Source: Candidatus Deferrimicrobiaceae bacterium
Lineage (GTDB): Bacteria > Desulfobacterota > Deferrimicrobia > Deferrimicrobiales > Deferrimicrobiaceae
Assembly: GCA_963792415.1 (NCBI GenBank)
Contig: CAWBVY010000004.1
Span: 480,001 to 544,000 of the forward strand
Reading direction: 5' to 3'
Length of the DNA: 64,000 nt
The translations under genes were made by a program, and so were the position numbers. This document shows, piece by piece, positions 17,087 through 58,176 of the stretch. A model generated the notes under the pieces. The model did not search any database. It was not told the DNA's origin and was given only the letters and a program-made list of their open reading frames with translations. Each line of letters opens with the position of its first letter. Position 1 is the stretch's first letter.

Positions 17087-17117
17087 GATCGCGCAATTTG
17101 TTCCCGGACAGGGCCTG

Positions 17118-26851: not shown

Positions 26852-28717
26852 ATGGAATACGGGACGCAGGCGACCGGGGGGCGCGTCGATCCCCTGCCGG
26901 AGGGCGACATCCTCGAGGGGTTCGACCGGCTGATCGCCGCGGGCCGGCTCTTCGGCGCGGAACTCAACCCGACGGTCATCAAGAAGAGCGGGAAAGGGGC
27001 GCCGTTCCTCGTCTGCCCGCATCCGTCCCGCTCCCGCATGCTCGACCTGTGGCGCGACCTCTTCACGAACCGCATCCTGCCGCAGGGGCTCCTCGACGCG
27101 TTGGCCCCGGAGCTCCTGGGGCTCGCCCACGGCGACGGGCTCCTCCTGTTCGGGAAGGACCGGATCCTTTACGACTGCCACATCGCGCGAGGGGGCGAGG
27201 CGGTCGGCCACCTCACCCTCTCCTTCTACCGGGAGACCGAACCGGTGTTCCGCTTCCTCCCGTTCCCGCGCCGACCCGGCCACCGCATCGTCTACATCGA
27301 GGGGATCTCCCTCTCGGCGCAGAGCACCGGATACGCCTCCTCCCTGTTCCGCCTCTACGAACGGCTCTTCCACAACCTCGGTTTCCACCGGTTCCGCCTG
27401 AAGGCGTCCCTCTCGGTGGGAAAATATTACTGGGCGAAGGAAGGGTTCGACTGCGAGGACCGGAAGCAGTTCGCCGAAATGCGGGAGAACCTCCACGCCC
27501 TCGTCCTGCGGCTGGGTCTGCCGGTGGAGGAGCAGGAGATCCGCCGGCTGAACCACGCGAGCATGATCGCCGCATTCCGCCGCGATCTCGCGATCCCGGT
27601 CTTCCGGAACGCGGAGGGGTACTACGCCGTCGCCCGGGACGACTCGCACTCCGAGGAGTTCCGATTCCCGCTCGGGAAGGCGTTCCTCCTCTGTTCCGCC
27701 CCGTGGGACGGCTGCAAGGTGATCTACACCGACACGCCGCGGCGCACGGGGTTCGTCTGGGCGGAGAGATTCCTCGATCACGGGACCCGGGCGGGCCACG
27801 TGGAGAGCCCGAGGCGCCTGAAGGCGCTCCTCGCCGCGATCCGCGAGGGGGGGATGAGGGAAAGCCTCATCTTTCTCGAGCCGTATCTCCCCACGATGCC
27901 GTCGCTCCACGCGGTGCACGACCCGGCCTATCTCGACGCATTCCGGGAGGCGGTCGCCCGGGGGAACCGGAAATTCCTCGTGCGCGACTGCTCGATCTCG
28001 GAGGGGAGCTACGAGGTCGCGCTGCTCGCGGCGGGCGGGGTGATGGCCGGGATCGACGCGGTCTTTTCGGACCGGGCGGACAACGTTTTCTGCGCCGTGC
28101 GTCCCCCGGGGCACCATGCGGGGCGCGCCTCCGCGATGGGGTTCTGCTTCCTGAACAACGTCGCCGCCGGTGCCCGGTACGCCCGGTCCGCCTACGGCGT
28201 CGGGCGCGTCTACATCCTCGACTGGGACGTGCACCACGGCAACGGCACCCAGGCGCTGTTCGACGAGGATCCGCTCACCTTCTTCTGCAGCCTGCACGAG
28301 CACCCGTCCTTCTGCTACCCGGGGACGGGGCGCCGGCTGGAGAGGGGTGCGGGTGCGGGGCGGGGAGCCACCCTGAACATCCCGCTGCAGCCCCACGCGG
28401 GCGACCGGGAGATGATCGAGGCGTTCGAGCGGGAAGTCGTCCCGTCGATCGAGAGGTTCCGCCCGGAATTGATCCTTCTGTCCGCCGGGTTCGACGCCCA
28501 CCGGGACGACCCGATCGCGGAGCTCGAGTGCACGGAGGACGCCTACGTCCACATGACCCGACGGGTCCTCGAACTGGCGGACCGCCACTGCCAAGGGCGC
28601 GTCGTGTCGGTGCTGGAAGGCGGGTATCGCATCGAGTCGCTGGTCTCCTCGGCGATCGCACACATCCGAACGTTGCAGGGAAGGGAGGTACCGCCATGTT
28701 CGTCGGCCGGAGGATGA
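26852..28717 (+). CDS. N-terminal GNAT-like domain fused to a histone deacetylase-family (AcuC-like) domain
   Basis: C-terminal HVESPRR, RPPGHHA, GFCFLNN, DWDVHHGNGT, SAGFDAH and LEGGY; N-terminal AQSTGYA...VGKYYWAKEGF. Confidence 0.85.
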   Translation: MEYGTQATGGRVDPLPEGDILEGFDRLIAAGRLFGAELNPTVIKKSGKGAPFLVCPHPSRSRMLDLWRDLFTNRILPQGLLDALAPELLGLAHGDGLLLFGKDRILYDCHIARGGEAVGHLTLSFYRETEPVFRFLPFPRRPGHRIVYIEGISLSAQSTGYASSLFRLYERLFHNLGFHRFRLKASLSVGKYYWAKEGFDCEDRKQFAEMRENLHALVLRLGLPVEEQEIRRLNHASMIAAFRRDLAIPVFRNAEGYYAVARDDSHSEEFRFPLGKAFLLCSAPWDGCKVIYTDTPRRTGFVWAERFLDHGTRAGHVESPRRLKALLAAIREGGMRESLIFLEPYLPTMPSLHAVHDPAYLDAFREAVARGNRKFLVRDCSISEGSYEVALLAAGGVMAGIDAVFSDRADNVFCAVRPPGHHAGRASAMGFCFLNNVAAGARYARSAYGVGRVYILDWDVHHGNGTQALFDEDPLTFFCSLHEHPSFCYPGTGRRLERGAGAGRGATLNIPLQPHAGDREMIEAFEREVVPSIERFRPELILLSAGFDAHRDDPIAELECTEDAYVHMTRRVLELADRHCQGRVVSVLEGGYRIESLVSSAIAHIRTLQGREVPPCSSAGG

Positions 28718-29337
28718 AACGGGAGATGGTGACCGTCACGCCCGGGGCGACCCTCGAGGAAGCGGCCCGGCTCCTCAAGGCCCACCGGATCCATCACCTC
28801 CCGGTGGTGGAGGAGGGGGACCGCCTCGCGGGGATCGTCTCCGACACGGATTTGAGGAACGCGACCCTCGACGGGATGTCCGGCGGCGCTGACCATGGCG
28901 ATTCCGGCCGCCCCGCGACCGTGGTGGAGATCATGACGCGGGACGTGGTGACCCTCTCCCCGGGGGACACGCTGGACGACGCGATGCTGGTTCTGACCCA
29001 CGAGAGGATCGGCGCCCTGCCGGTGGTCGAGGGGGAGCGCCTGGTGGGGATCGTCACGAAGGCGGACATACTCACGGCCCTGTTGTCCACACTCGACGTC
29101 GAAGGGCTGGGGGTCCGGATCGAGGTCGTCCTGCCGCGGGATGTAAGGGAGGTGGCCCGCCTGGTCGGCGTGCTCGGGGACCTGCAGGCGGAAGTGCGCA
29201 GTCTCGTGCTGGCCCCCCACGGGGCCGAGGGGTACGCCGCGTTCGTCCGGGTGGCGACGATCGACGTCGGTTCCCTGAAGGGGCGACTGCGGGGGGCGGG
29301 GTTCAAGGTCCCGGAGGTCTCGGAATTCCTGGAGTGA
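28696..29337 (+). CDS. acuB: CBS-pair + ACT protein (AcuB-like)
   Basis: MFVGRRM, IHHLPVV, GIVSDTD, IGALPVV and a C-terminal ACT-like region; GGGAGG RBS. Confidence 0.8.
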   Translation: MFVGRRMKREMVTVTPGATLEEAARLLKAHRIHHLPVVEEGDRLAGIVSDTDLRNATLDGMSGGADHGDSGRPATVVEIMTRDVVTLSPGDTLDDAMLVLTHERIGALPVVEGERLVGIVTKADILTALLSTLDVEGLGVRIEVVLPRDVREVARLVGVLGDLQAEVRSLVLAPHGAEGYAAFVRVATIDVGSLKGRLRGAGFKVPEVSEFLE

Positions 29338-29388: not shown

Positions 29389-29417
29389 TTGACACCACCG
29401 ACGGCGCATCATTTAAT
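29389..29417 (+). promoter_or_regulatory. sigma70-type promoter of DAB cluster 1
   Basis: TTGACA-17 bp-TTTAAT. Confidence 0.7.
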
Positions 29418-29533
29418 GTCTGGAATTTTCCCGGCGCCGCTGGGGCCGTCGGCATGTGGCGCCATTCGCCTAAAATAGTCCCATCAACAGCCGGCTCATG
29501 GCATGTTGGCCGCTCTTACGGGGGGAACCGCGA

Positions 29534-32500
29534 GTGACCTACGTACTCGTTCCGCAGCCGGATCCTGTCACCGACGCAGATCGCCAGCGGCTGCTGGCCG
29601 CGGTCGCCCTCGCAAGCGAGGCCGTCGCGCCGTTTTATCCGATGCGGACGTTCATCCACCACAATCCCCTCCACGGCCTCGAGCATCTGCCGTTCGACGA
29701 GGCGATCCGGAAAGGCCGGAAATTGACCGGTGGCAACGGTTACCTGTCCAACGAGGAGTATCGCGGCCTTCTCGCGGATGGGCGCATCGGCAAGGGCGAT
29801 TTGAGGAACGCGATACGGCGGCTCGCTCCCGGGTTGGACGAGCACGGCGGAGTTGCCGTGGGGAGGCACCGGATCGACCCGCTCGACGTGCTTGAAATCC
29901 ACCTGGTCTACGGGATCGACCCGATCGAGCCGGAAGCCTTCCGCGACATGGTTCGCAAGAAAGGGGTACATCGGCGGTTTTGCCCGGATCTGCCGTCCAA
30001 CCTCCGTGGCAGGCTGCAGGCCGCCGCCGGGGGCATGCGGGCCGCCGATCCGCCCCGCGTGCCGGATAGGACGTCGGACCCGGAGACCCGGATCGCATCG
30101 GAGCTCTGGTCGGCCGTTCTGTACGCTCTTGATCTCGACCGGACGGCGCCGGACGGGCTGAACGGGCAAGGCGGGGTCGTTGAGGAGGAAGCCGTCGAGC
30201 GAGAGGCCCGGATCCTGGCAGCCGCCGGGACGGATGCCGTCGAGGCCGCAGCCGCGTCGGCGGGCCTGGAGATGCTGGCCGGCGACCTGAGGGGCATCGG
30301 CGAGGGGATGACCGTGGGAGAGTGGTGCGGCCGGCTGGCGGGCGTGGACATCGTCGGCGTGATCAACCGGGAAATGATCAAGTGGTGTTCGGCCTTTCTG
30401 GATCAGGGGATGGCGATGTGGGAGGCCCCCGGCAGGGAGAAGGGGTACTACGCCTTCTGGCGGGACCTCGCCGCGCGCGATTTCTCGGGGCGGTTCCTCG
30501 GGATCAGGGGATTTCGCGGCCTTGTGGAGCGCCTGCCGGATACGCCCGAGGATGCGCTCATCGGGAGCTTGCGTGCGCTGGGAAATACCGACAAGAGCTG
30601 GATCGAATACCTCGAGCGTCACCTTGCCCAGCTGCCCGGATGGGCCGGGTTCGTGAAGTGGCGATCCGAGTCGCACGATTACCGGTGGCAGCGGCGGTAC
30701 CCGATCGAGCTGGTCGATTATCTCGCGGTGCGGATGTTCTACGAACGTCAGCTTGTGGATGCGTGCTGCCGGGATACCTGGGAAGTCGAGGGGACGGTGC
30801 AGGCGCTGGCGGGTTATTTCCGTCGCCGTCCCGCCGAGTATTTTGCGCGCCGGCGATCCGCCGAGGCGAGCGTCCCGGCCGTCGCAACTCCGCATCAACC
30901 GGTCCGCGGGCGGGTACCTGCGTCGGACGGGGCCTGGGACCGGTTCGGCCGGATCCTGCGTCTCTGCGACGAAACCTCCAGGCGCGATCCGTGGTCGGCG
31001 CTCGGCCGGAACGCCTGGCGCCTGTTCCGCCTCGCGCAGTTCCTGGGGCTCTCGCCGGCGGGGGTCCGGCGCATGCCCATGGAGGATGCACGGGCGTTGC
31101 TGGCGATCCTCGACCGCGTGCCGCCCGACGCGCACGGCCCGATATGGCTTGAGGCCCACGAAGCGAATTACAGGGACACGCTGCTTTCCCGGCTGGCCGC
31201 AAACAGGAGCGGCGATCCCGGTGTCTCCTCCCGGTCCGGGCGGCGTCCCCTGGCGCAGGCGATCTTCTGCATCGACGTGCGCTCCGAGGGCTTCCGCAGG
31301 CACCTCGAAGCCGTGGGCGATACTGAAACGCTAGGTTTTGCCGGCTTTTTCGGTGTTCCCATCGGGTTCCGCGGGTTCGGGCAGCAGGAGGATGCGGCGC
31401 TCTGCCCTGTCCTGATCAAGCCGAAGTGCGTGGTGGTCGAGTTTCCGCGCGGGGGGGCGGAGCGGGAGGGGGAACGGGCGCTGAGGGGTCTTGCGTGGGA
31501 CGGCGTCGTCCACGGCGTCGTGCAACGGCTCGAGCGCCATTTTGCGGCCTCCTACGCGCTGGTCGACCTGCTCGGAGGCTTTTTCGGCCTCTCGCTCGTC
31601 GGCCGCACTCTGTTCCCGGGCGCGTCGCGCCGCCTGGCCTCCCGCCTCCATCACGCCGTGGTTCCGCCGGCGGCGACGGGGCTTACCGTGGGGAAGATCG
31701 ACCAGAAGAAAGCCGAGGAACTCGTCGCCGGCCTCGACCCGCCTGAACGCGCCGCCCGCCTCGAGCGGTTGGGGACGCAGGGTTTCGGCAGGGAGGAACA
31801 GGCCCTCTACATCGAAACCGGGCTTCGCACCATGGGCCTGACCGGCGCGTTCGCGCATCTTGTCCTCGTCTGCGGCCACGGGAGCGAGTCGACCAACAAC
31901 CCCTACGCTGCAGCGCTGGATTGCGGCGCCTGCGGGGGGAGCCATGGCGGGCCGAACGCCCGCGTGTTCGCCATGCTGGCGAACAACCCTTCGGTCCGGG
32001 CGATGCTGCGACAGCGCGGCATCGACATCCCGGAGGACACCTGGTTCGTGGCTGCCCAGCACAATACGACCACCGATGAAGTGGAAATCCTGGACGAGCG
32101 CGACTGCCCGGAGACGCACGCGGAGGATCTCCGGTGGCTTCGCCGGGACCTTGCCGAGGCGGGCGCCCGCCAGGCGCAGGAGCGTTGCGGGCGGCTGCCG
32201 GGGTCGCCGGCCGGCCTCTCGCCGCGCGCCGCGCTTCGGCACGTGGAGCGCCGCAGCGCCGACCTCGCCCAGGTGCGCCCGGAGTGGGGCCTGTCGAGCA
32301 ACGCCGCGTTCATCGTCGCCCACCGGTCGCTCACCCGGGAGCTCAACCTCGGCGGTCGGGTGTTCCTGCACTCCTACGACTGGGAGCGGGACACGATAGG
32401 GAGCGTGCTTGACGTGATCATGACCGCCCCCCTCATCGTCGGTGAGTGGATCAACATGGAGCACTACTTCTCCACCGTGGACAACAAGGTGTACGGAAGC

Positions 32501-32839
32501 GACAGCAAGGTGATCCACAACGTCGTGGGAGGGTTCGGGGTCGTGCTGGGCAGTGGAGGCGACCTGCAGACGGGGTTGCCGCGCCAGACGGTGATGGCGG
32601 GGGAGGCGCGTTACCACGATCCCCTGCGCCTGTTGGCGGTGATCGAGGCGCCGACGGACCGGATCGGGGAGATCATCCGGCGCCACCGCATCCTGCAGCA
32701 CCTGTTCGACAATGGATGGGTCAACCTGGTCGCGCTCGACCCGCGGACCGGTACCTTCCATCGCTACCTGCCAGGTTTCGCCTGGGAACGCCTCGCCGTC
32801 GAACCGGGCCGCGAGCGCCGCGACGGGATACGAAAATGA
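29534..32839 (+). CDS. dabA: inorganic carbon transporter subunit DabA (DUF2309), copy 1
   Basis: FIHHNPLHGLE, LPGWAG, CIDVRSE, CGHGS, LDCGACGG, VRPEWGL, WINMEHYFS. Confidence 0.93.
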   Translation: MTYVLVPQPDPVTDADRQRLLAAVALASEAVAPFYPMRTFIHHNPLHGLEHLPFDEAIRKGRKLTGGNGYLSNEEYRGLLADGRIGKGDLRNAIRRLAPGLDEHGGVAVGRHRIDPLDVLEIHLVYGIDPIEPEAFRDMVRKKGVHRRFCPDLPSNLRGRLQAAAGGMRAADPPRVPDRTSDPETRIASELWSAVLYALDLDRTAPDGLNGQGGVVEEEAVEREARILAAAGTDAVEAAAASAGLEMLAGDLRGIGEGMTVGEWCGRLAGVDIVGVINREMIKWCSAFLDQGMAMWEAPGREKGYYAFWRDLAARDFSGRFLGIRGFRGLVERLPDTPEDALIGSLRALGNTDKSWIEYLERHLAQLPGWAGFVKWRSESHDYRWQRRYPIELVDYLAVRMFYERQLVDACCRDTWEVEGTVQALAGYFRRRPAEYFARRRSAEASVPAVATPHQPVRGRVPASDGAWDRFGRILRLCDETSRRDPWSALGRNAWRLFRLAQFLGLSPAGVRRMPMEDARALLAILDRVPPDAHGPIWLEAHEANYRDTLLSRLAANRSGDPGVSSRSGRRPLAQAIFCIDVRSEGFRRHLEAVGDTETLGFAGFFGVPIGFRGFGQQEDAALCPVLIKPKCVVVEFPRGGAEREGERALRGLAWDGVVHGVVQRLERHFAASYALVDLLGGFFGLSLVGRTLFPGASRRLASRLHHAVVPPAATGLTVGKIDQKKAEELVAGLDPPERAARLERLGTQGFGREEQALYIETGLRTMGLTGAFAHLVLVCGHGSESTNNPYAAALDCGACGGSHGGPNARVFAMLANNPSVRAMLRQRGIDIPEDTWFVAAQHNTTTDEVEILDERDCPETHAEDLRWLRRDLAEAGARQAQERCGRLPGSPAGLSPRAALRHVERRSADLAQVRPEWGLSSNAAFIVAHRSLTRELNLGGRVFLHSYDWERDTIGSVLDVIMTAPLIVGEWINMEHYFSTVDNKVYGSDSKVIHNVVGGFGVVLGSGGDLQTGLPRQTVMAGEARYHDPLRLLAVIEAPTDRIGEIIRRHRILQHLFDNGWVNLVALDPRTGTFHRYLPGFAWERLAVEPGRERRDGIRK

Positions 32840-34413
32840 CGTGGATGCCTGCGTACCTGTCGTCGAACCTGCTGACGGTCCTGATCTTCTTCCCGCTGGC
32901 CGGGGCGCTGCTGCTCTTCTTCCTGCCGAAGGGAAACGTGCGCCTGATCCGGAACGCGACCCTGCTTGTCACCCTGGCGGAGTTCCTCCTCTCGCTGGTC
33001 ATCGTCTTCCGGTTCGACGACGCAACCGCGTCGATGCAGTTCGTCGAGCGGGCTTCCTGGATCCCCGGCTACGGGATCGAGTACCACGTGGGCGTCGACG
33101 GGATCTCGCTCTGGCTCGTCATGCTCACGACGTTCCTCATGCCCATCGTGGTCCTCTCCACCTACCAGGCGGTTGAGAAGCACGTGAAGGAGTTCCTGAT
33201 CTTCACACTGGTTCTGGAGGTCGGGATGGTGGGGGTGTTCCTTGCGATCGACCTCTTCCTCTTCTACATCTTCTGGGAACTGGTGCTCGTCCCGATGTAC
33301 TTCCTGATCGGGGTGTGGGGTAGCGACCGGCGCATCTACTCGGCGATCAAGTTCTTCCTGTACACGTTCGCGGGCTCGGTGCTGATGCTCGTCGCGATCA
33401 TCGCGCTCTATTTCCACCACCACGAGGTCACGGGGGTCTACACGACGAACCTGCTCCGCCTGTATGAGCTGTCGATTCCGGTGCAGCTGCAGTTCTGGAT
33501 GTTCGCCGCCTTCGCGCTGGCGTTCGCGGTCAAGGTCCCGATGTTCCCGTTCCACACGTGGCTCCCCGACGCCCACGTGGACGCACCCACGTCGGGCTCG
33601 GTGATCCTCGCGGCGTTATTGCTCAAGATGGGGACCTACGGGTTCCTCCGGTTCGCGATGCCTCTGTTTCCGGTCGCCGCTTTCGATCTGATGCCGTTGA
33701 TCGGTGCGCTTGCGGTCGTCGGGATCATCTACGGGGCGCTGGTCGCGATGGCCCAGAAGGACATGAAGAAGCTCGTCGCCTACTCCTCGGTCTCCCACCT
33801 CGGGTTCGTCATGCTGGGGCTGTTCGCCTTCAACATCCAGGGGATACAGGGCGGAATCCTCCAGATGGTCAACCACGGCATCTCGACGGGGGCCCTCTTC
33901 CTCCTCGTCGGCATCCTCTACGAGAGGCGCCACACCCGCCTCGTTTCGGAGTACGGAGGGCTGTTCAAGGTCATCCCCGTGTACGCGACGGTCTTCATGA
34001 TCGTGGCGCTCTCCTCGCTGGGTCTGCCCGGCCTGAACAACTTCGCCGGCGAGTTCCTGATCCTCATGGGCGCGTTCCAGTCGATGAGGGGGCTCACGGT
34101 CGCGGCCACCGTCGGGATCTTCTTCGCGGCCGTATACATGCTCTGGATGTTCCAGCGCGTGATGTTCGGCGCGGTGGGCAACGAGAAGAACCGGCATCTT
34201 CCGGACATGAATGCGCGCGAGGTGGCCTGCATGCTTCCTCTCCTTCTGTTCGTCTTCTGGATCGGGGTATACCCCCAGACGTTCCTCCGGAAGATGGAAG
34301 CCTCGGTGTCGGCTGCCGTGACGCGGATGGAGGGGAAGCGACAGGCGTTGCTCATGGGACGGCCGCCCGGGGAGACCCTGCTCGCACGCTATTTCGATCG
34401 TGCCCGTGATTGA
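32836..34413 (+). CDS. NuoM/ND4-like antiporter subunit, copy 1
   Basis: GVDGISL, FYIFWE, KVPMFPFHTWLPDAHVDAP, LLKMG, AYSSVSH; ATGA overlap with dabA. Confidence 0.92.
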   Translation: MTWMPAYLSSNLLTVLIFFPLAGALLLFFLPKGNVRLIRNATLLVTLAEFLLSLVIVFRFDDATASMQFVERASWIPGYGIEYHVGVDGISLWLVMLTTFLMPIVVLSTYQAVEKHVKEFLIFTLVLEVGMVGVFLAIDLFLFYIFWELVLVPMYFLIGVWGSDRRIYSAIKFFLYTFAGSVLMLVAIIALYFHHHEVTGVYTTNLLRLYELSIPVQLQFWMFAAFALAFAVKVPMFPFHTWLPDAHVDAPTSGSVILAALLLKMGTYGFLRFAMPLFPVAAFDLMPLIGALAVVGIIYGALVAMAQKDMKKLVAYSSVSHLGFVMLGLFAFNIQGIQGGILQMVNHGISTGALFLLVGILYERRHTRLVSEYGGLFKVIPVYATVFMIVALSSLGLPGLNNFAGEFLILMGAFQSMRGLTVAATVGIFFAAVYMLWMFQRVMFGAVGNEKNRHLPDMNAREVACMLPLLLFVFWIGVYPQTFLRKMEASVSAAVTRMEGKRQALLMGRPPGETLLARYFDRARD

Positions 34414-34491
34414 AACGGGCCGGCCGTTCGGGTATATGGCTTTTTCCATGTTCCTTCGCCGTGACTCCAGACGTCGATCGGGGGTGATGAG

Positions 34492-34836
34492 ATGAGCGAC
34501 ACAAGCCTGGTATTGATGAAGAGGGTCCAGATCATCGTCAAGGGCGAGGACCTGCACCTTGTCGAGGAGCTTCTCGTGAAAGCGCGCGTTTCCGGATTCA
34601 CCATCGTGCCGAACGTATCGGGCAGGGGGCATCACGGCACCCATGAAGGGCACCTTCTCTTCAACGACATGCACACGCTGGACGTCCTGTTCACCATCGT
34701 CCCGGAGGACCGGGTCGATCCGATCCTCGCCGGCCTCGGGACGCTGTTCGAGCGGCATTCGGGCGTCGTGTTCGTCTCGGATGTCTGGGTCACCCGCAAG
34801 CACTACTTCGAGACGTATGCCAACCCCTCCCGCTGA
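34492..34836 (+). CDS. P-II superfamily regulator (SbtB/DUF190-like)
   Basis: MKRVQIIV, VSGFTI..VSGRGHHG, SGVVFVSDV. Confidence 0.85.
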   Translation: MSDTSLVLMKRVQIIVKGEDLHLVEELLVKARVSGFTIVPNVSGRGHHGTHEGHLLFNDMHTLDVLFTIVPEDRVDPILAGLGTLFERHSGVVFVSDVWVTRKHYFETYANPSR

Positions 34837-34859
34837 CGGCGCACGGGACCGGTAGCGGG

Positions 34860-36782
34860 ATGCCACTCGCCTGCCTCGCCGTTCCCGCACTGCCCCTGCT
34901 CGCCTTCCTGGCGATCCTCCTGGGCGGTCACTGGCTTCGCGGCCGCAGTCATGTGGTCGCGCTCGCCGCCGCCGGCGTTTCGTTCGCCCTGTCGGTGGCG
35001 GTGGCAGTCGAGGTCGTCTCGTCGGGTCCGGTCCAGGTGGTTCTGTACACGTGGATCGGGTCCGGATCGTTAGTGGTGCGCCTCGGACTGTACGTGGACC
35101 GCCTGACCGTCGTCATGCTGGTGATGGTGACGACGATCTCGGGAATCGTGCAGGCTTACAGCGTGCGTTACATGGACGGCGACGGCGGCTACTCGAGGTA
35201 CTTCGCCTTCGTCTGCCTGTTCACCGGCTCCATGCTGATGCTGGTGATGAGCGACAACCTCCTGATGATGTTCGTGTTCTGGGAAGCGGTGGGACTGTGC
35301 TCCTACCTCCTGATCGGGTTCACGTACGAGCGGAAGCCGGCGTGCGACGCCGCGGTGAAGGCGTTCTGGGTGAACCGGGTCGGCGACATGGGGTTCCTGC
35401 TGGGGATCCTTCTCGCGTGGACGACGTTCGGGACGCTCGACTCCCTCGCGATCATGCGCGAGGCGGGCCGGCACGCGGGCGCCACCGTCGCGCTCTTCGG
35501 TCAGTACGGGTCGGTGAGCACGCTGACCCTCATCACCATGCTGTTCCTCTGCGGGGCGCTCGCAAAGTCGGCCCAGCTTCCTTTCCACGTGTGGCTGCCT
35601 GACGCGATGGAGGCGCCGACTCCCGTCTCCGCCCTGATCCACGCGGCGACGATGGTGACGGCCGGCGTGTTCCTCATCGCCCGCTTCGCCCCCCTGTTCG
35701 AACTCGCTCCCGTGACGCTCTCCGTCCTCGCGTTCGTCGGCGCGGCGTCGGCGTTCTTCGCGGCCGCGGTCTCGACGGTCCAGACCGACATCAAGCGGGT
35801 CCTGGCGTATTCCACGATGTGCCAGCTGGGGTACATGATGCTGGCCTGCGGTCTCGGGGCCTACGGGCTGGCGATCTTCCACCTGGTCGCCCACGCGGCG
35901 TTCAAGGCCCTGCTGTTCCTGACCGCGGGGATGGCGATCGAGGAGGTCGCCGCGCACGAAGCGCTCATCGAATCCGGGCGATCCGGGCGCTGGCTCCCCG
36001 CCCGCTTCTGGCTCCTGTGGATATCGGGGGTCGCCCTGGCGGCGATGCCGCCCCTGGTTCTTATCGCGGGCGGGAAAGGTCTTTTTCAACTGGTGTCCCC
36101 ATCGGATCACGGCCATCCGGTATTCTGGATCCTGGCATGGGGCACCGCGCTGATGACGGTCGTTTACCTGCTCCGGCTGGTCGGAACCGCCGAGCTCCGG
36201 TCCGGGGTGGACGCCACGCCGATTCGGCTCCTGTCGCCGCGGGCGCTCGGATTCGTGGCCGGGACGGCAGGGGTGGTGGTCCTTGCCTCGGTCTGGTCGC
36301 CTCTCGCCGGATGGGCCTGGTTCGAGCGGTTCATGGCTTCGGCGCTGCCGACCCCGCACCACGGATCCCCGCCTTCCGCGGCGGAAGGGACGCTTGCGCT
36401 GGCCGCCGTGACGGTCGCCGGCCTGACCCTCCTGGCGGCGGCATGGGGGGGGCTGCGCGCGGTGCTGCGGCTGCGGACGGCCGCCGGCCCCGGGTTGTGG
36501 GACAGGTGGAGCGCAACGTTGTACGTGGTCGTGCTGAACCGCGGGTATGTGGACGAGATCTACCGGGCGACGCTGGTGCGACCCGCGCTTTCGCTCGCGA
36601 TGTGGCTGTCCGACTCGTTCGACGCCGGAGTCATCGACCGCGCTGTCGACGGCTTCGGGGCGGCCGTCGCGGGCATGGGGGAGCGGATGCGGGAGATCCA
36701 GAGCGGGCAGTTCCACCATTACGCCATCGCCATGCTTCTCGGGGTCATCCTGCTCCTGGGGTTCTGCCTGGTGGCGGGCTAA
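34860..36782 (+). CDS. dabB: NuoL/ND5-like membrane subunit DabB, copy 1
   Basis: FWEAVG, NRVGD, KSAQLPFHVWLPDAMEAPTPVSALIHAATMV, HLVAHAAFKA. Confidence 0.85.
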   Translation: MPLACLAVPALPLLAFLAILLGGHWLRGRSHVVALAAAGVSFALSVAVAVEVVSSGPVQVVLYTWIGSGSLVVRLGLYVDRLTVVMLVMVTTISGIVQAYSVRYMDGDGGYSRYFAFVCLFTGSMLMLVMSDNLLMMFVFWEAVGLCSYLLIGFTYERKPACDAAVKAFWVNRVGDMGFLLGILLAWTTFGTLDSLAIMREAGRHAGATVALFGQYGSVSTLTLITMLFLCGALAKSAQLPFHVWLPDAMEAPTPVSALIHAATMVTAGVFLIARFAPLFELAPVTLSVLAFVGAASAFFAAAVSTVQTDIKRVLAYSTMCQLGYMMLACGLGAYGLAIFHLVAHAAFKALLFLTAGMAIEEVAAHEALIESGRSGRWLPARFWLLWISGVALAAMPPLVLIAGGKGLFQLVSPSDHGHPVFWILAWGTALMTVVYLLRLVGTAELRSGVDATPIRLLSPRALGFVAGTAGVVVLASVWSPLAGWAWFERFMASALPTPHHGSPPSAAEGTLALAAVTVAGLTLLAAAWGGLRAVLRLRTAAGPGLWDRWSATLYVVVLNRGYVDEIYRATLVRPALSLAMWLSDSFDAGVIDRAVDGFGAAVAGMGERMREIQSGQFHHYAIAMLLGVILLLGFCLVAG

Positions 36783-36800
36783 GGGGAGGATCTTCCCCTT
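36781..36800 (+). terminator. hairpin after cluster 1
   Basis: AAGGGGAG-gat-CTTCCCCTT; weak U tail. Confidence 0.4.
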
Positions 36801-36873
36801 GACTCGAAGGTTTGCATGTTAAAAGATGTTCGCTGATCGGGTCATGCCGGCTGCTCTTTTCGGGGGAACCACG

Positions 36874-39800
36874 GTGTCCACCAAACGCGTCGAGCAGACA
36901 GGTCCGATCACCGAAGTCGACCGGCAGCGGGTGCTGTCCGCGGTCGCCCTGGCGAGCGAGTCCGTTTCGTCGTTCTGGCCGATGCGGATGTTCGTCCACC
37001 ACAATCCCCTTCACGGCCTCGAACATCTGCCCTTCGACACGGCGGTCCGCAAGTCGAATAGCCTTACCGGCGGACGTGGTTACCTGACAAACGAAGAGTA
37101 CCGCCGCATGTTGGCGAGCGGGCACATAAAAGCCGATGACCTCGCTCGTGCGATCGAACGGCTTGAATTTGCCGGAATCGACGTGCGCAAGGAAGTGGTC
37201 TTCGGTGGGCGCCGGGTCCGGACCCTCGATGTCGTTGCCAGCCATGTCGCCTTCGGGATCGGCGCGCTGGAGCCGGCCGCATTCCGGGCCCGGGTCCGCG
37301 AGCGGGCGCTTCTGCGGCTGTTTCCCGATCTCCCGCCGGACCGCCGCGCCCGGCTGCTTGCCGCCTCGGCATGGAAGACCCCGGAAGAGATCGCATCGGA
37401 GCTTTGGTCGGCCGTTCTTCGCGTCCTGGGAATCAGCGGCCCGGATCCGTTCGCCTTCGACGAACTCGAGGAGGCGGAACTGGAGGTGCGTTTCGAGCGC
37501 GAAGTGCTCGCGGCGACCTCGGGCGAAACAGAGGCCGTGGATGCCGCCGTCGCGTCGGACGGCCTGGAGCTGCTGGCAGCCGACCTCGACCGCGTCGGGG
37601 AGGATATGACCGCGGGGGAGTGGTGCGGCCGGCTGGCGGGCGCCGACATCGTCGGCGTGATCAACAGGGAAATGATCAAATGGTGCTCGGTTTTCCTCGA
37701 TCAGGGGGTGGCGACGTGGGAGGCCCCCGGCAGGGAGAAGGGATTCTACTCCTTCTGGCGGAGCCTTGCAGCGTGGGATTTCTCGGGAAGATTCCTGGGG
37801 ATTCGAGGGTTTCGCCGCATGGTACATCGCCTGCCGGATACGTCCGAGGATGCGCTCATCGGGAGCTTGCGTGCGCTGGGAAATACCGACAAGAGCTGGA
37901 TCGAAACCCTGGGGCGTCACCTTGCCCAGCTGCCCGGTTGGGCGGGATTCGTGAAATGGCGGTCGGAGGCGCACGACTACCATTGGCAACGGCGGCACCC
38001 CATCGATCTGGTCGATTATCTCGCGGTGCGGATGTTCTACGAACGTCACCTTGTGGATGCGTGCTGCCGGGATATCTGGGAAGTCGAAGGGACGGTGCAC
38101 GCGCTGGCGGAGTATTTCCGTCGCCGTCCCGCCGAGTATTTTGCGCGCCGGCGATCCGCCGAGGAACCGTTCCCGGATTTTACACGCCGGCATCGTCCTG
38201 CCGCGGAGCGAAAACCAGGGAGTGACGACGCCTGGGTCCGGTTCGGCCGCATCCTTTTCCTGGTCCGGGAACACTCTGAACGCGATCCGTGGTCGGCGCA
38301 TGGTCGCGACGCATGGCGGCTGTTCCGTCTGGCCCAGTTCCTGGCGCTCTCGCCTGCGGAGGTCCGGGCGATGTCCGGGGATGACGCACGGGCGTTGCTG
38401 GCGATCCTCGACCGCGTGCCGCCGGACGCGCACGGCCGGATCTGGCTGGAGGCCCACGAGGCGAATTACAGGGACACGCTGCTTTCCCGGCTGGCTGCGA
38501 GACATCGAGACCTCCTCTCGGGGAGCCCCCGGCGTGACTCCCGTCCCGCGTCGCAGTCGGTGTACTGCATCGATGTCCGATCGGAGGGGTTCCGACGGCA
38601 TCTCGAAGCCGTGGGCGACCATGAAACGTTCGGCTTCGCGGGCTTTTTCGGTCGTTCCCATCGGGTTCCGCGGTTTCGGGAAGAAGGAGGATTCGGCGCT
38701 CTGCCCCGTCCTGATCAAGCCGAAGTGCGTGATCGTGGAGCAGCCGGGTGTCGGCGCCGGCCCGGCCGGGAAGCGGGCGTTGCGGGGCATGGCGTGGGAC
38801 GGCATCGTTCATGGAGTCGTCCAGCGGCTCGAGCGTCATTTCGCGGCTTCGTACGCGATGGTCGATCTGCTCGGCGGGGTTTTCGGCCTCTCGCTCGCAG
38901 GCCGTACCTTGGCCCCGGCGGCTACGCGCCGCCTCGCTGCGAAGGTCCACCATCGGGCCGTGCCGAAGGCGGCCACGAGTCTCACGGTGGGCAAGATGAC
39001 CCGGAAGGAAGCCGAGGAACTCGTCGCCGGCCTCGACCCGCCTGAACGCGCCGCCCGCCTCGAGCGGTTGGGGACGCAGGGGTTCACCGGGGAGGAACAG
39101 GCCCTCTACATCGAAACCGGGCTTCGCACGATGGGCCTTACCGGCCCCTTCGCGCGCATGGTGCTCGTCTGCGGCCACCGGAGCACATCGACCAACAATC
39201 CTTATGTGGCCGCCCTGGATTGCGGCGCGTGCGGGGGGAGCCCCAGCGGGCCGAACGCCCGTGTGTTCGCCATGCTGGCGAACAAACCCACGGTCCGGGC
39301 GATGCTGCGACAGCGCGGCATCGACATCCCGGAGGACACCTGGTTCGTGGCTGCCCAGCACAATACGACCACCGATGAAGTGGAAATCCTGGACGAGTGC
39401 GACTGCCCGGAGACGCACGGGGAGGATCTTCAGTGGCTTCGCAGGGACCTCGCCGAGGCGGGCGCCCGCCAGGCGCAGGAGCGTTGCGGGCGGCTGCCGG
39501 GATCGCCGGCCGGCCTCTCGCCGCGCGCCGCGCTTCGGCACGTGGAGCGCCGCAGCGCCGATCTCGCCCAGGTGCTCCCGGAGTGGGGGCTGTCGAGCAA
39601 CGCCGCGTTCATCGTCGCGCACCGGTCTCTCACCCGGGAGCTCAACCTCGGCGGCCGGGTGTTCCTTCAATCCTACGACTGGCGGCGGGACGCCGAGGGT
39701 ACGTCCCTTGAGATCATCATGACCGCCCCCCTCATCGTCGGTGAGTGGATCAACATGGAGCACTACTTCTCCGCCGTGGACAACAAGGTGTACGGAAGCG

Positions 39801-40114
39801 ACAGCAAGGTGGTCCACAACGTCGTGGGAGGGTTCGGGGTCATGCTGGGCAGCGGCGGCGACCTGCGGACGGGGTTGCCGCGGCAGACGGTGATGGCGGG
39901 GGAGGCGCGTTACCACGATCCCCTGCGCCTGTTGGCGGTGATCGAGGCGCCGACGGACCGGATCGGGGAGATCATCAGGCGCCATCACGCGCTTCAGCAC
40001 CTGTTCGACAACGGGTGGGTCAACCTGGTTGCGCTCGATCCGCGGACCGGTTCGTTCCTCCGCTATCGCGAGGGGGGCGGCTGGGAGCCTTCCGAGGTCC
40101 GCGCGGCCTGCTGA
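36874..40114 (+). CDS. dabA: DabA (DUF2309), copy 2; +1 frameshift near 38653
   Basis: Same motifs as copy 1. TTCGGTcGTTCCC here versus TTCGGTGTTCCC in copy 1 shows one extra C. Confidence 0.88.
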
Positions 40115-40203
40115 GTCGCGTCCGTTCCGGGGCGGCCTTTGCGAAAAGGGGCGGCAGCGGTTACTATGCCGGCAATGAGCGAAAACTGGCGGAGTGCATC
40201 GAC

Positions 40204-41824
40204 ATGACGGTCCCCGCATTCCTGTCGTCGAACCTGTTGACCGTGGTGATCTTCTCCCCGCTTGCCGGCGCCCTGCTGCTCGTTCTTCCTGCCGAAGGGA
40301 AACCTCCGCCTGATCCGGAACGCGGCTTTCCTGACGGCTCTCGCGGAATTCCTCCTCTCGCTGGTCATCGTCTTCCGGTTCGACGACGCGACCGCGTCGA
40401 TGCAGTTCGTCGAGCGGGCTTCCTGGATTCCCGGCTACGGGATCGAGTATCACGTGGGCGTGGACGGGATCTCCCTGTGGCTGGTGATGCTGACCACATT
40501 CCTCCTGCCGATCACGATTCTCTCCACCTACAGGGCGGTCAACAGCCACGTGAAGGAGTTCATGATCTTCCTGCTGCTCATCGAGGTCGGTATGGTGGGA
40601 GTCTTCCTGTCGATCGACCTCTTCCTCTTCTACGTTTTCTGGGAACTGGTGCTCGTCCCCATGTACCTTCTCATCGGCGTGTGGGGGAGCGACCGTTGCG
40701 TCTACTCCGCGATCAAGTTCTTCCTCTACACGTTCGCCGGCTCCGTGCTGATGCTCGTGGCCATCATCGCCCTCTATTTCCACCATTACGATGTCACCGG
40801 GGTCAAAACGACGAGCCTGCTCAGCATGTACGATCTCACCATCCCGGTGAAACTGCAGTTCTGGCTGTTCGCCGCCTTCGCGCTCGCGTTCGCCGTCAAG
40901 GTCCCGATGTTCCCGTTCCACACGTGGCTTCCCGACGCCCACGTGGACGCCCCGACTTCGGGATCCGTGATCCTTGCCGCCTTGCTGCTCAAGATGGGGA
41001 CCTACGGGTTCCTCCGTTTCGCAATGCCGCTTTTCCCCGTGGCCGCTTCGGCCCTGATGCCTGTTGTTGCGGTTCTTGCCGTCATCGGGATCATCTACGG
41101 GGCGCTCGTTGCGACGGTCCAGAAGGACATGAAGAAGCTGGTCGCCTACTCCTCCGTTTCCCACCTCGGATTCGTGATGCTCGGCCTTTTCGCCTTCAAC
41201 AGTCAGGGGATCGAGGGAGGGATCCTCCAGATGGTCAACCACGGCATCTCGACCGGGGCCCTCTTTCTCCTCGTCGGGATCCTCTACGAAAGGCGGCATA
41301 CCCGCCTGATATTGGAATACGGGGGGCTTTTCAAGATCCAGCCGGTGTTCGCCATCGTCTTCCTGATCATAACGCTTTCCTCTCTCGGCCTCCCGGGGCT
41401 CAACAACTTCGTCGGAGAGTTTCTCATCCTGATGGGAGTATTCCGGGTGTCACCGGCATTCGCGCTGCTCGCCTCCTTCGGCGTTGTTCTGTCGGCGGTC
41501 TACATGCTCTGGATGTTCCAGCGGGTGATGTTCGGCCCGGTCACGAACGAGAAGAACCGGAACTTGCCGGACCTGAGCGCGCGGGAGGCGGCCTGCGTGC
41601 TGCCTTTCCTGGTGTTCGTCTTCTGGATCGGATTTTATCCGCAGACGTTCCTCCGGAAGATGACCGCCTCGGTTTCGGCGGTCGTGTCCAGGATCGAAAC
41701 GAAGCGGCAGGCGGCGCTCGGGGATCGCCCTTCGGACGAAACCGTGCTGGCCCGCTACCTCGATTGGAAACCGCAGGGACATCGAGGGGACCACGTGTCC
41801 GTGGCGGCTCCGGGCGGGAGATGA
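40204..41824 (+). CDS. NuoM-like subunit, copy 2; +1 frameshift near 40282
   Basis: Paralog of 32836-34413. CTGCTCgTTCTTC here versus CTGCTCTTCTTC in copy 1. Confidence 0.88.
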
Positions 41825-41889
41825 AGACGGTTCGGGGTGCGAAACGGGGGGACCCTGACATTCTCCGGATATGCGGGACAGCACAATGA
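41821..41889 (+). CDS. putative 22-aa bridging mini-ORF
   Basis: ATGA overlap at both ends; MKTVRGAKRGDPDILRICGTAQ. Confidence 0.35.
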   Translation: MKTVRGAKRGDPDILRICGTAQ

Positions 41890-43976
41890 CGCTTGCCTGC
41901 ATCGCGATCCCGCTCCTTCCGTTGCTCGCCTCCGTTGCGATCGTGCTCGGCGGCCCGTGGCTGAAAGGCCGCAGCCACTTCGTGGCGCTTCCCGCCGTGT
42001 GCGGCGCGTTCGCGCTTTCCGTCGCGGCCCTCGTCCACGTGGTCTCCTCGGGGCCGGTGCGGGCGCCGCTTTACGAGTGGATCGACGCCGGGTCGTTTTC
42101 CGTGCGTATCGGCCTGTTGGTCGACCGCCTGACCGTCGTCATGCTCGTGATGGTTACGGCAGTCGCGGGCCTGGTCCAGGCGTACAGCGTGCGCTACATG
42201 CGGGGAGACGACGGGTACGCAAGGTTCTTCGCGTGCGTCTCGCTGTTCACCGGCTCGATGCTGATGCTGGTGATGAGCGACAACCTCCTGACGATGTTCG
42301 TGTTCTGGGAAGCGGTGGGACTGTGCTCCTACCTCCTGATCGGGTTCACGTACGAGCGGAAGCCGGCGTGCGACGCCGCGGTGAAGGCGTTCTGGGTGAA
42401 CCGGATCGGGGACGCGGGGTTCCTGATGGGGATCCTTCTCGCGTGGACGACGTTCGGGACGCTCGACTCCCTCGCGATCATGCGCGATGCGGGCCGGCAC
42501 GCGGGCGACACCGTCGCGCTCTTCGGTCGGTACGGGTCGGTGAACACGCTGACCCTCATCACCATGCTGTTCCTCTGCGGGGCGCTCGCAAAGTCGGCCC
42601 AGCTTCCCTTCCACGTGTGGCTGCCCAACGCGATGGAGGCGCCGACTCCCGTCTCCGCCCTGATCCACGCGGCGACGATGGTGACGGCCGGCGTGTTCCT
42701 CGTCGCCCGCTTCGCCCCCCTGTTCGACCAGGCGCCGGTTACGCGGAATGTCCTTGTCGTCGCAGGTGCGTCTTCTGCGGTGTTCGGTGCCGCTGTTTCC
42801 ATGGTGCAGGCCGACATCAAGCGGGTCCTGGCGTATTCCACGATGAGCCAGCTGGGGTACATGATGCTGGCCTGCGGCCTCGGAGCCTACGGGCTGGCGA
42901 TCTTCCACATGGTCGCCCACGCTGCGTTCAAGTCCCTGCTGTTCCTGACCGCGGGAACCGCGATCGAGGAGGTGGCCGCCCGGCACGATTTCCCGGCGCC
43001 CGTTCGCTCCGCCGGCTGGTTGCCCGCCCGCTTCTGGCTCCTCTGGGGTTCGGCCGTCGCACTGGCGTCGATGCCCCCCCTTGTACTGATCGCGGGCGGG
43101 AAAGGTCTTTTCCAACGGGTGTCCCCATCGGAACACGGGCATCCGGTATTCTGGGCGCTGACCTGGGTCGCGGCGCTGATGACGGTGGTGTACCTGCTTC
43201 GACTGGTAAGGGCCGCAGAGCAGCGATCCGGGCCGGACGCCACGCCGCTTCGTCTCCTGACGCCGAGGGCGTTCGGATATGTCGCGGGGACCGTGGCGGT
43301 GGTGACCATGGTTTCCGTGTGGTCCCCCCTCGCCGGCTGGGCGTGGTTCGAACGCTTCATGGCTTCGGCGCTCCCCTCCCCGTCGCCAGGCGCTCCGGTC
43401 GCCTCCGCGGAAGGGGCGCTGTCCCTCGCGATCATGACGGCCATGGGCGTGACGCTTTCGGCCGCGGTGTTCGGATTCCTTCATGCGGCCTTGCGAAGGC
43501 GCGCGCCTGCGGCGCCCGGCCCGTGGGATCGATGGAGTGCCATGCTCTATGTCGTTGTGCTGAACCGCGGATACGTGGACGAGGTCTATCAGGCGGCCAT
43601 TGTCCGCCCCGTGCTGGGGATCGCGAAATGGCTTTCGGAGTCGGTCGACGTCGAAATCATCGACCGTTCCGTCGAAGGCATCGGCGCGGTTTTGGAAAAC
43701 GTCGGGAGGTGGCTGTCGACGTGCATCGAGGGAGGCATCGACCGTGGTTTCGAAGGCTTCAGCGCGGTTTTTGAAGGCGTCGGGAAGTGGCTGTCGACGT
43801 GTATAGAGGGAGGAGTCATCGACCGGGCCGTCGACGGATTCGGGGCGGCCGTCGCGGGCATGGGAGAGCGGATGCGGCGGATGCAGAGCGGGCAGTTCCA
43901 CCATTACGCCATCGTCGCGCTCCTCGGCGTCATCCTGCTGCTGGGGGTGTGCCTCGCGGCGGTAGTCGCCGGTTGA
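41886..43976 (+). CDS. dabB: NuoL-like DabB, copy 2
   Basis: Paralog of 34860-36782 with a C-terminal repeat expansion. Confidence 0.85.
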   Translation: MTLACIAIPLLPLLASVAIVLGGPWLKGRSHFVALPAVCGAFALSVAALVHVVSSGPVRAPLYEWIDAGSFSVRIGLLVDRLTVVMLVMVTAVAGLVQAYSVRYMRGDDGYARFFACVSLFTGSMLMLVMSDNLLTMFVFWEAVGLCSYLLIGFTYERKPACDAAVKAFWVNRIGDAGFLMGILLAWTTFGTLDSLAIMRDAGRHAGDTVALFGRYGSVNTLTLITMLFLCGALAKSAQLPFHVWLPNAMEAPTPVSALIHAATMVTAGVFLVARFAPLFDQAPVTRNVLVVAGASSAVFGAAVSMVQADIKRVLAYSTMSQLGYMMLACGLGAYGLAIFHMVAHAAFKSLLFLTAGTAIEEVAARHDFPAPVRSAGWLPARFWLLWGSAVALASMPPLVLIAGGKGLFQRVSPSEHGHPVFWALTWVAALMTVVYLLRLVRAAEQRSGPDATPLRLLTPRAFGYVAGTVAVVTMVSVWSPLAGWAWFERFMASALPSPSPGAPVASAEGALSLAIMTAMGVTLSAAVFGFLHAALRRRAPAAPGPWDRWSAMLYVVVLNRGYVDEVYQAAIVRPVLGIAKWLSESVDVEIIDRSVEGIGAVLENVGRWLSTCIEGGIDRGFEGFSAVFEGVGKWLSTCIEGGVIDRAVDGFGAAVAGMGERMRRMQSGQFHHYAIVALLGVILLLGVCLAAVVAG
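43659..43826 (+). repeat. ~78-bp coding tandem repeat in dabB copy 2
   Basis: IDRxxEGxxAVxExVGxWLSTCIEGG twice; ATCGACCG at 43659, 43737 and 43818. Confidence 0.85.
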
Positions 43977-44210: not shown

Positions 44211-45480
44211 CTAGGCGTCGTGCGACGGCTTCTTGAGGATGAGCACCAGGATGATCCCGAGGACGCACATGCCCGACAGGGTGAAGTAGGTCTGGTTGTA
44301 CCCGGCGGCGATGTCTCCCGCCTTCTTCGCCGCGTCGACGATGCCGGCGAAGTACCCCGGGACGACGAACCCGCAGATTCCCCACGCCGTGAAGACGGTG
44401 CCGTAGTTGGCGCCCACGTTCTTCGGGCCGTAGAAGTCGGCCGTGAACGACGGCATCATCGCCAGGTAGCCGCCGTACGAGAAGCCGACCAGGCACAGGC
44501 CGGCAAGGGCCTGCACGAAGTTGGTGGTGTTCCGGAGCAGGAAGAGGCAGGCGACGATGTAGACGACGAACATGGCGACCGTCGTCGGCTTTCCGCCCGA
44601 TCTTGTCGGAGGTCGCGCCCCACGCGAGGCGGCCGACCCCGTTGAACGCGCTCATCAACCCGAGGGCCGCGGCCGCGGACATGATGGCGGTGCCCGCCGC
44701 CATGCCCTTCATCACCGGGACTGCCTGGCCGATGGAGACGATCCCGACGCTGGTGCCGAGGAAGTAGATGAACCACAGGCAGTAGAACTGCCACGTCTTG
44801 ACCATCTCGCCCGTGGTGAACTCCGCCTTCTGCACCACGCCGGCGGCGCTGGTGGCCGCGGCGGGAGGAGTCCACCCTTCCGGCTTGTAGCCGGCGGGCG
44901 GGACGTCGTAGATCCGGGCGGCGCCGACGACGCAGACCAGCATGATGACGCCGAGGATGCCGAAGGTCCGGGGAACGGTGGTCGACCACATCGCCGCATC
45001 GGGACCGAGGAGGGCCGAGATCAACGGCGCGAAGATCATCGAGCCCGCCCCGAAGCCGAGGACCGCGAGGCCGACGATCGTCCCGCGCTTGTCGGGGAAC
45101 CACTTCACGCAGGTGGCGATCGGGGTGACGTAGGCGAACCCGACGCCGAGGCCCCCGATGATCCCGTAGGCGAAATTGAGGCCCATCGGGTTCTGCCACA
45201 TGAGGGCCGAAAGGAAGCAGCCGGCGGCCAGCAGGCCGCCGCCGACCGAGCCGACGAGTTTCGGCCCCTTCTTGTCCTGCCAGAACCCGGCGATGATCAT
45301 CGCGACGGTGAAGAAGAGCAGCGAGTAGCGGTACGGCGCGATCGAGGTCTTCCCGTCCCAACCGTTCGTTTTCTCCAGAACCGGCCGGAACACCGACCAG
45401 GAGTACAACGCACCCAAGCACAGCTGCATTACCAAGGCGGCGTAGACGAACTTCCAACGATTCACCTTCTCAGCCATCAT
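44211..45480 (-). CDS. OFA-family (oxalate/formate antiporter-like) MFS transporter; +1 frameshift near 44591
   Basis: LGALYSWSVF, KWFPDKRG, NGVGRLAWG, ADFYGPKNVGANYG. Removing one A restores IGRKPTTVAMFVVY. Confidence 0.88.
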
Positions 45481-58140: not shown

Positions 58141-58176
58141 TAACAATAATTTAGACTTTTAATTCAAATTTTACTT

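Follow-up and report, generated by a model that had tools for sequence, protein, structure and literature searches.

Two tandem DabA operon units

The subject of this report is a pair of tandem operon units, each joining a dabA gene to genes for NuoM- and NuoL-type antiporter-like subunits, in the genome of a Candidatus Deferrimicrobiaceae bacterium (assembly GCA_963792415.1). The stretch analyzed, hereafter the window, comprises 64,000 nucleotides (contig CAWBVY010000004.1, positions 480,001 to 544,000), and all positions below count from its first letter. Unit 1 has the order dabA1-nuoM1-P-II-nuoL1 and unit 2 the order dabA2-nuoM2-nuoL2, and the two are 80–82% identical at the DNA level. An earlier note on this DNA had described a repeated dabA-nuoM-(P-II or mini-ORF)-nuoL arrangement; the two units are real, but unit 2 lacks a P-II gene and its mini-ORF (a short open reading frame) is unconserved. 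The encoded proteins are abbreviated A, M, and L where convenient (e.g. M1, L2), and TM denotes a transmembrane helix. The features are as follows.

29389..29417, forward strand: putative promoter TTGACA...TTTAAT upstream of unit 1, kept in relatives L001, L004, and L005
29534..32839, forward: dabA1, 1101 aa, GTG start; PF10070 (886 bits) and PDB 9RD0_A (381 bits)
32836..34413, forward: nuoM1; TIGR01972 (626 bits), with canonical NuoM residues and tree position
34492..34836, forward: P-II gene, 114 aa; PF00543, DAB1-linked or CPII type
34860..36782, forward: nuoL1; TIGR01974 (528 bits), a remodeled NuoL by sequence; TM16 region at 36537-36782
36799..36826, forward: putative promoter TTGACT... 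before unit 2, kept in L002
36877..40114, forward: dabA2; PF10070, +1 frameshift near 38652, VLPEWGL and GHRS variants
40204..41824, forward: nuoM2; +1 frameshift at 40281-40282
41821..41889, forward: mini-ORF of 22 aa overlapping nuoM2 and nuoL2, unrelated to P-II
41886..43976, forward: nuoL2, 696 aa; its lateral helix exceeds that of L1 by 53 residues
43629..43868, forward: three tandem lateral-helix units in nuoL2 (27, 26, and 27 codons); L1 has one

The earlier note had also pointed to ATGA coupling of dabA1 and nuoM1, and the overlap is present at 32836-32839. Its remark that no other nuo genes are adjacent likewise holds, as tblastn searches with E. coli NuoH, NuoJ, and NuoK, the small Mrp subunits, and SulP gave zero matches within the window. 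It had suggested profile searches, and PF10070, PF00543, TIGR01972, and TIGR01974 all matched in unit 1.

The L subunits

The characterized relatives are DAB1 (DabA-DabB-DabC; PMC13684180) and DAB2 (PDB 9RD0), and the earlier note had labeled the L genes dabB. As far as sequence can tell, the L gene is a remodeled nuoL, not a dabB: its product lies outside the DabB clade and keeps Glu144, a long lateral helix, and TM16. Because long branches distorted a FastTree phylogeny built on full-length L, it was replaced by an IQ-TREE analysis of 38 selected rows with L cut at TM11, in which a 100/99 branch sets window L apart from all 13 DabB1/DabB2 rows and groups it with NuoL-type proteins. L1 scores 270–330 bits against NuoL-type chains of bacteria, cyanobacteria, and plants versus 127 against DabB2, and it clears the NuoL cutoff (528 vs 407.5 bits), with the DabB-type controls L050 and L039 at 299 and 246 bits. 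The charged axis of L1 is intact (E144, R175, K229, H254, H334, H338, K342, and a Lys at the K399 position or beside it). E144 is lost in 12/12 DabB-type rows, all of which carry an Arg after TM11 that L1 lacks. The DAB2 preprint describes a DabB2 without the long helix and reports that restoring the Glu at position 144 halves DAB2 growth.

Downstream of TM11 window L diverges and no longer has the MGGL and GFFSKD motifs, the region at which the DabA finger inserts in the solved DABs. TM16 and the long lateral helix are retained, unlike in DabB. A QxGQ motif precedes TM16 in 42/42 window-clade L proteins and in 59/75 NuoL-like matches, versus 0/16 Mrp-linked L proteins, and the window TM16 region has a median score of 81 to NuoL-like versus 37 to Mrp-linked L. 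In complex I, TM16 contacts NuoN, and the standard lateral helix spans M and N.

Lateral-helix repeats

The lateral helix spans 53 residues in L1 and 106 in L2, the difference being two added units of 26–27 codons. Spans in the window clade (43 rows, with L1 counted twice and one fragment unmeasured) fall at 53 (16 rows), 80 (12), 86 (1), and 106–107 (14), compared with 49–54 in 59/59 measured NuoL-like proteins (76 rows) and with 80, 105–107 (11 rows), and 130 in the Mrp-linked type (13 measured of 18). The repeat period is 25–27 in 44/44 long tails, and the repeat sequences differ between lineages. The L2 helix is amphipathic, with a peak at 96 degrees, and the 50 matches listed by a Foldseek search with the L2 model are all complex I L-type chains. 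In the 2M complex I, an insertion of 26 residues is reported to accompany each extra pumping subunit (PMC9040806); by analogy, the spans in the window clade are suggestive of a helix-length ruler for subunit number.

The M subunits

NuoM1 keeps 7/7 checked charged or polar residues (E144, K234, H248, K265, H322, H348, and E407; E. coli numbering). In a FastTree phylogeny M1 and M2 form one clade (32 rows, 0.966) inside a 123-row radiation of Deferrimicrobiaceae NuoM, and they are 66–82% identical to 89 other members of this host family versus 44–49% to Mrp-linked M. A co-location count (120 matches, 5 of them dropped as fragments or for want of a contig size) found 6/26 M1/M2-type clusters on a contig of the same size as one bearing a clade DabA or L, versus 0/89 others (p=8e-5, an indirect measure); 38/89 of the others lie on contigs of at least 15 kb. 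The count therefore suggests, indirectly, that the other host-family NuoM proteins are ordinary complex I subunits. A published MBNT15 genome has two nuo clusters and, among the pathways listed, no complete one for carbon fixation (PMC9386147). By a soft test, M1/M2 differ from host NuoM mainly at E. coli positions 401–440, near TM12–13, where identity is 0.58–0.62 vs a background of 0.76.

M is likely a real subunit of the DabA system, since the operon is conserved, the charged residues are intact, the lateral helix is long enough to span it, and one relative (L030) carries an L::M fusion. The same evidence supports the proposal in the earlier note of a larger complex with two antiporter-like subunits. 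What the note had missed is that NuoM belongs to the host's NuoM family, that L keeps its lateral helix and TM16, and that 27-residue repeats occur.

DabA

Membership of DabA1 in the DabA family is indicated by the PF10070 match together with an intact CxDxR-His-Cys zinc site (C579, D581, R583, H782, and C797), a membrane finger with an acidic residue (D678), and the gating Leu (L920). The window DabA clade comprises 29 clusters of at least 60% identity, the next being at 50% or below save for one partial match. D678 replaces the Glu of the DAB1 and DAB2 rows (E444 in the DabA2 of DAB2). The DAB1 motifs NNPYESALDCGACGG and DW(xxx)RPEWGL are unmatched, the window having NNPY[A/V]AALDCGACGG and DLAQV[R/L]PEWGL, and contacts of DAB1 to DabB are altered, E704 being replaced by A or V, with Leu standing in place of the Trp in DW(xxx)RPEWGL.

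These altered coupling residues would suit a system that is no carbon-uptake pump at all and instead runs in reverse, or serves pH or energy balance, e.g. by bicarbonate dehydration tied to protons. According to PMC9386147, no carbon-fixation pathway is complete in the lineage, and the 2017 survey of this family guessed at an exergonic, ion-exporting function (PMC5700660). We nevertheless judge such a role improbable, in that DabA retains every zinc ligand, the Asp-Arg dyad, the gating Leu, and the finger, sulP and CPII-type P-II neighbors indicate inorganic carbon, and DABs are used by heterotrophs too (DAB2 preprint).

A complex prediction with DabA1 residues 566–1082 and L1 residues 78–560 scored 0.56 vs 0.00 for the best control, with contacts agreeing to at least 67% and partner pLDDT (predicted local distance difference test) of at least 64. 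The prediction mark is reached by 116/157 solved and 2/215 mismatched pairs, and at 0.60 or below by 18/157 solved pairs and both mismatches. Because a like complex has already been solved, the prediction may reflect likeness, and it lends weak support to a DabA1–L1 contact.

Relatives and sister operons

Relatives were sought in the best 80 of 411 matches, which make up 77 loci (L-numbers). The earlier note had suggested a survey of dabA-nuoM-P-II-dabB neighborhoods; the A-M-P-L order was found in 3/6 close loci, and L1-A2 and A2-M2-L2 junctions occur in two more, the six loci representing three assemblies. Since these orders recur, the gene order of the units, as judged from the sequences, is not chance. 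L004 is a third dabA-nuoM copy in the assembly of L003 and L006 and has the same promoter and leader with unrelated upstream genes. Operons of other types are as follows.

L007-L016, L018, L019, L021, L023-L028: sulP-dabA-mrpE-F-G-B-B-C-D-nuoL-nuoM operons
L030:11987-15448: L::M fusion
L020:7242-9983 and L022:3476-6112: DabB fused to a degenerate half-M
L066:8353-17888; L075:8401-20580; L070, L074, L077: DabA operons in which antiporter-like genes number two to five, key charged residues being absent from some of them

In the sister DabA clade, mrpE, F, G, B, B, and C come after dabA (19/77 loci, from Nitrospirales, Acidobacteriota, and Gammaproteobacteria); 16/19 of these loci run on to mrpD-nuoL-nuoM before the locus ends, sulP lies upstream in 17/19, and a search for P-II in the 19 loci gave zero matches. 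Their L proteins have lost the TM12 Lys and carry 1–3 helix repeats. The bicA-mrp-nuoL/nuoM locus of Nitrospira, whose nuoL and nuoM have been interpreted as additional mrpA/D genes that help the cell tolerate salt and pH (PMC7784846, PMC12342949), is probably this sister operon type, and a search of the main texts of both papers for DUF2309 or DabA gave no match. To judge from their gene content, the Mrp-type operons are possibly DabA-Mrp hybrid pumps misread as salt-tolerance antiporters, which, if true, would suggest re-reading the Mrp plus nuoL/nuoM operons of marine nitrite oxidizers and Gammaproteobacteria as carbon-uptake systems. In L010-L014 about 2 kb separates dabA from mrpE, and in L010 this segment codes for a trypsin-PDZ protease.

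The sister clade also raises the question of whether an Mrp antiporter with genes elsewhere could be the core on which the window arm docks, coupling CO2 hydration to Na+/H+ exchange. The mrp genes after dabA and the upstream sulP genes of this nearest DabA clade would fit such a core; the window M, for its part, falls outside the Mrp-linked M clade, and the TM16 scores favor NuoL-like over Mrp-linked L, so that we hold this coupling to be very improbable.

A proposed DabA-tipped arm on a complex-I-type core

From the gene content, residues, phylogeny, and helix lengths seen directly, we infer DabA–L binding, core docking, subunit numbers, proton direction, redox coupling, and physiological use as parts of one arrangement, to which we give a probability of roughly 45%: each unit would encode a DabA-tipped L+M distal arm that docks on a complex-I-type core in place of NuoL and NuoM. 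DabA, a buried zinc enzyme resembling beta-carbonic anhydrase, would sit on the tip of the remodeled NuoL via its membrane finger; next to NuoL in the arm would come NuoM, a copy drawn from the NuoM proteins of the host family; and the NuoL lateral helix and TM16 would serve as a strap that ties the arm to a NuoN-type subunit whose gene lies outside the operon, elsewhere in the genome. Protons moving along the charged axis, which is intact, would then drive one-way CO2 hydration and the build-up of bicarbonate in the cytoplasm, and a possible analog of the arm is NdhF3/NdhD3/CupA on the cyanobacterial NDH-1. L1 would have the standard L-M-N span and L2 room for one or two more M-type subunits, and P-II would tune unit 1. 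In favor of the arm are the grouping of L with NuoL-type proteins, the nesting of M in host NuoM, the retained helix and TM16, and the sister clade, which pairs the same three genes with an N-like core of MrpD and small subunits (19/77 loci). The stepped helix spans, the contig-size count, the two nuo clusters of the MBNT15 genome, and, weakly, the DabA1–L1 prediction also speak for it.

Several observations weigh against docking on a complex-I-type core. Zero core genes lie in the window, characterized DABs need no redox input (PMC13684180), and the complex I role of the other host NuoM proteins is inferred, not read from contigs. The exact sister of window L is unstable in the tree and thus uncertain because long branches meet, and the changed DAB coupling residues (with DabB R331 also absent) mean that coupling may be altered or lost. 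The AlphaFold model of L2 renders the lateral helix as helical at low confidence, with pLDDT <50 at residues 613–673. Insertions of this type are also reported in complexes without extra genes (PMC9040806), and the repeat number varies among close orthologs (L2-type proteins of 80 vs 107), so the ruler may be loose; Mrp-linked L proteins span 80, 105–107, or 130 residues, yet have one nuoM gene each. Finally, a helix of standard length would equally suit an L-M-M arrangement without a core.

The last point leads to a stand-alone DAB driven by proton motive force, in which DabA-L-M-M, with up to four M and no redox core, would pass more protons per turnover for a steeper bicarbonate accumulation, M taking the place of DabC. 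DabC overlays half of NuoM beside DabB (PMC13684180), and a 2017 paper already proposed that a larger set of subunits carries a larger number of ions (PMC5700660). The L::M fusion in L030 and the DabB–half-M fusions in L020 and L022, which by sequence may represent stages between a full NuoM and DabC, are consistent with an arm of this kind, as are the several M-like genes in other DabA operons (L066, L075) and quantized helix lengths that would suit M polymers. On the other side of the balance stand TM16 and the NuoL-type motif, kept in 42/42, an M from the host NuoM family that differs mainly near TM12–13, and a sister clade with its own N-like core; moreover, we know of no M homo-oligomer. 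A stand-alone pump is accordingly a serious but unlikely alternative.

Extended to its full consequence, the docked arm would be a second, independently evolved respiration-driven CO2 pump, in which exchangeable L+M modules would have placed DabA at the far end of complex I in a bacterium that is not photosynthetic. The 27-residue repeats would fix the number of pumping subunits at three, four, or five, and a sister family would use an Mrp core in the same way. We advance this composite proposal tentatively, as one with somewhat better prospects of being wrong than right.

Relation to known systems

The window DabA shares with DAB1 and DAB2 the Cys2His zinc site, the Asp-Arg dyad, the gating Leu, and the finger, and both systems likewise have a NuoL-family partner altered after TM11 and, in the DAB1 type, a P-II neighbor. 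The window differs from both in a partner that lies outside the DabB clade with E144, a long lateral helix, and TM16, and in the finger Asp for Glu and the changed equivalents of E704, W816, and R331; compared with DAB1, it has a full NuoM where DAB1 has the half-size, non-pumping DabC. Clade C of the ybcC/COG3002 survey (PMC5700660) shares a dabA upstream of a nuoL homolog together with an extra nuoM; the window differs from it in having no sulP, a P-II gene inside the operon, and a tandem pair. That 2017 study placed dabA upstream of nuoL with nuoM and sulP, and P-II with another clade; it proposed that extra subunits move extra ions, and in the section concerned it assigned no CO2 function and says nothing on the lateral helix, on where M came from, or on core docking.

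The cyanobacterial NDH-1MS / NDH-1(3,4) complexes (NdhF3/4, NdhD3/4, CupA/B; PMC6981117) also combine a hydrase with its own L and M paralogs, in two sets, without core genes alongside, as far as the 64-kb window allows the comparison; by analogy, the two would also share a position at the far end of the complex I arm. The window hydrase is PF10070 DabA, with a beta-carbonic-anhydrase fold and finger, rather than a Cup protein, and the host is non-photosynthetic. The 2M complex I, including Manganitrophaceae Complex_I_3 (PMC9040806), shares the lateral-helix insertion of about 26 residues (two units in L2, none in L1). The window clade differs in having 0, 1, or 2 units, a DabA-linked L, and no redox subunits in the operon, and the extra nuoM of the 2M type lies inside a full nuo operon, whereas the window lacks nuoH/J/K.

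The combination of dabA, nuoL, and nuoM and the P-II gene are not new, the former having been published in 2017 (PMC5700660) and the latter being of known DAB1/CPII type; other papers considered are 10.1101/476713, PMC8115632, and PMC3578206. A literature search that covered few subscription papers found no paper that connects DabA with either a complex I core or repeats in the lateral helix. Relative to the literature searched, the extra NuoM itself is known, and no precedent turned up for an arm derived from complex I, for a helix ruler, or for the docking model; the feature itself is real, and its surprising, testable part is the proposed complex-I-derived arm with a quantized strap. What renders carbonic anhydrase one-way in DABs and Cup proteins has been named an open question, DABs being regarded as redox-independent and Cups as redox-coupled (PMC13684180). 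A DabA on a complex-I-type arm, if true, would bridge DABs and Cups, would make proton stoichiometry directly testable via the number of 27-residue repeats or swaps of M, and would suggest that minimal DABs arose by trimming of the arm, from a full M to a fused M or the half M of DabC to none.

Integrity of unit 2

The earlier note had stated that both DabA copies keep the CxD, His, and Cys ligands. This is correct for dabA1, whereas dabA2 has them only across a frameshift: one surplus base leaves CxD 5' of the break and His and Cys 3' of it, so no single open reading frame carries all of them. NuoM2 also has one surplus base, and neither frameshift appears in the earlier note. A codon-usage scan of bases 1-58000 pointed to one further in-gene frame change, in a neighboring gene of the major facilitator superfamily (MFS).

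44216-45480, reverse strand: MFS transporter, lactate/oxalate-formate type, convergent with the operon; +1 frameshift near 44582

We weighed whether unit 2 is a decaying duplicate whose repeats arose by neutral slippage. Its two frameshifts, the R-to-L change in RPEWGL, and its labile repeat number would be expected of one, and the resemblance of the insertions to "two wobble alleles" is nonsignificant (null 51% each). However, the dabA2 insertion is absent from L002 and L006 and that of nuoM2 from L006; an intact protein, P0141, is 99.8% identical to NuoM2; the ratio of nonsynonymous to synonymous substitution rates 3' of the breaks is 0.22–0.28, similar to 0.25–0.49 for unit 1 genes; the third frameshift sits in the unrelated MFS gene; and L2-type proteins are numerous and full length. 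Decay is thus the least probable reading considered here, and the dabA2 and nuoM2 frameshifts are probably assembly errors, judging from these sequence comparisons. An intact near-identical dabA2 was sought among the homologs and none was found, the best match being at 89%. A wobble-allele origin fits all three insertions and was dropped because random insertions fit 51% of the time (1738/3425).

The GHRS (39176) and VLPEWGL (39560) variants of DabA2 recur in the first-position DabA of L001. A1 and A2 are 86% identical in their catalytic halves and 68% in their N-halves, which, with the shared variants, hints at gene conversion. The mini-ORF is missing in L006, where nuoM2 runs ATGA-coupled directly into nuoL2. 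A P-II remnant was considered for it and rejected: its sequence does not resemble the P-II region, and 281/500 shuffles score equally high.

P-II and upstream sequences

The earlier note had proposed a special His-rich, P-II/SbtB-like regulator, and the sequence instead indicates an ordinary DAB1-linked type, 42–53% identical to DAB1-linked P-II proteins. Its PDB matches are 5D4N/5D4L only (89 bits), the former of which we take to be Thiomonas CPII. CPII binds bicarbonate, and the nucleotide binding of TiCPII is bicarbonate-modulated (10.1101/762807).

A conserved leader of about 115 bases (29418-29533) precedes dabA1. A structured leader RNA was rejected for it, with 0/32 pairs showing two-sided change (4 sequences) and no Rfam match. 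A consensus promoter scan gave nothing above chance and did not list the 29389..29417 site.

Neighboring genes

The link to pyruvate synthase drawn in the earlier note is unsupported. Genes of the pyruvate:ferredoxin oxidoreductase (PFOR) type, fused 2-oxoacid:ferredoxin oxidoreductase genes (gamma-delta, alpha-beta) at 13201-16528, lie in a separate cluster about 13 kb upstream of the operon, and PFOR takes CO2, whereas DABs produce bicarbonate. Immediately upstream of the operon, histone-deacetylase-family and CBS-domain genes at 26852-29337, presumably acuC/acuB-like, have the same synteny in L001. Elsewhere in the window are a small signal recognition particle RNA at 9989-10088, a Roadblock-domain and small-GTPase pair at 16613-17711 that we take to be mglB/mglA-like, and a polysaccharide-type cluster at 58000-64000, where the guanine-plus-cytosine content falls to 44–54% and which was probably acquired. 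A caspase-domain protein is encoded at 52177-53106.

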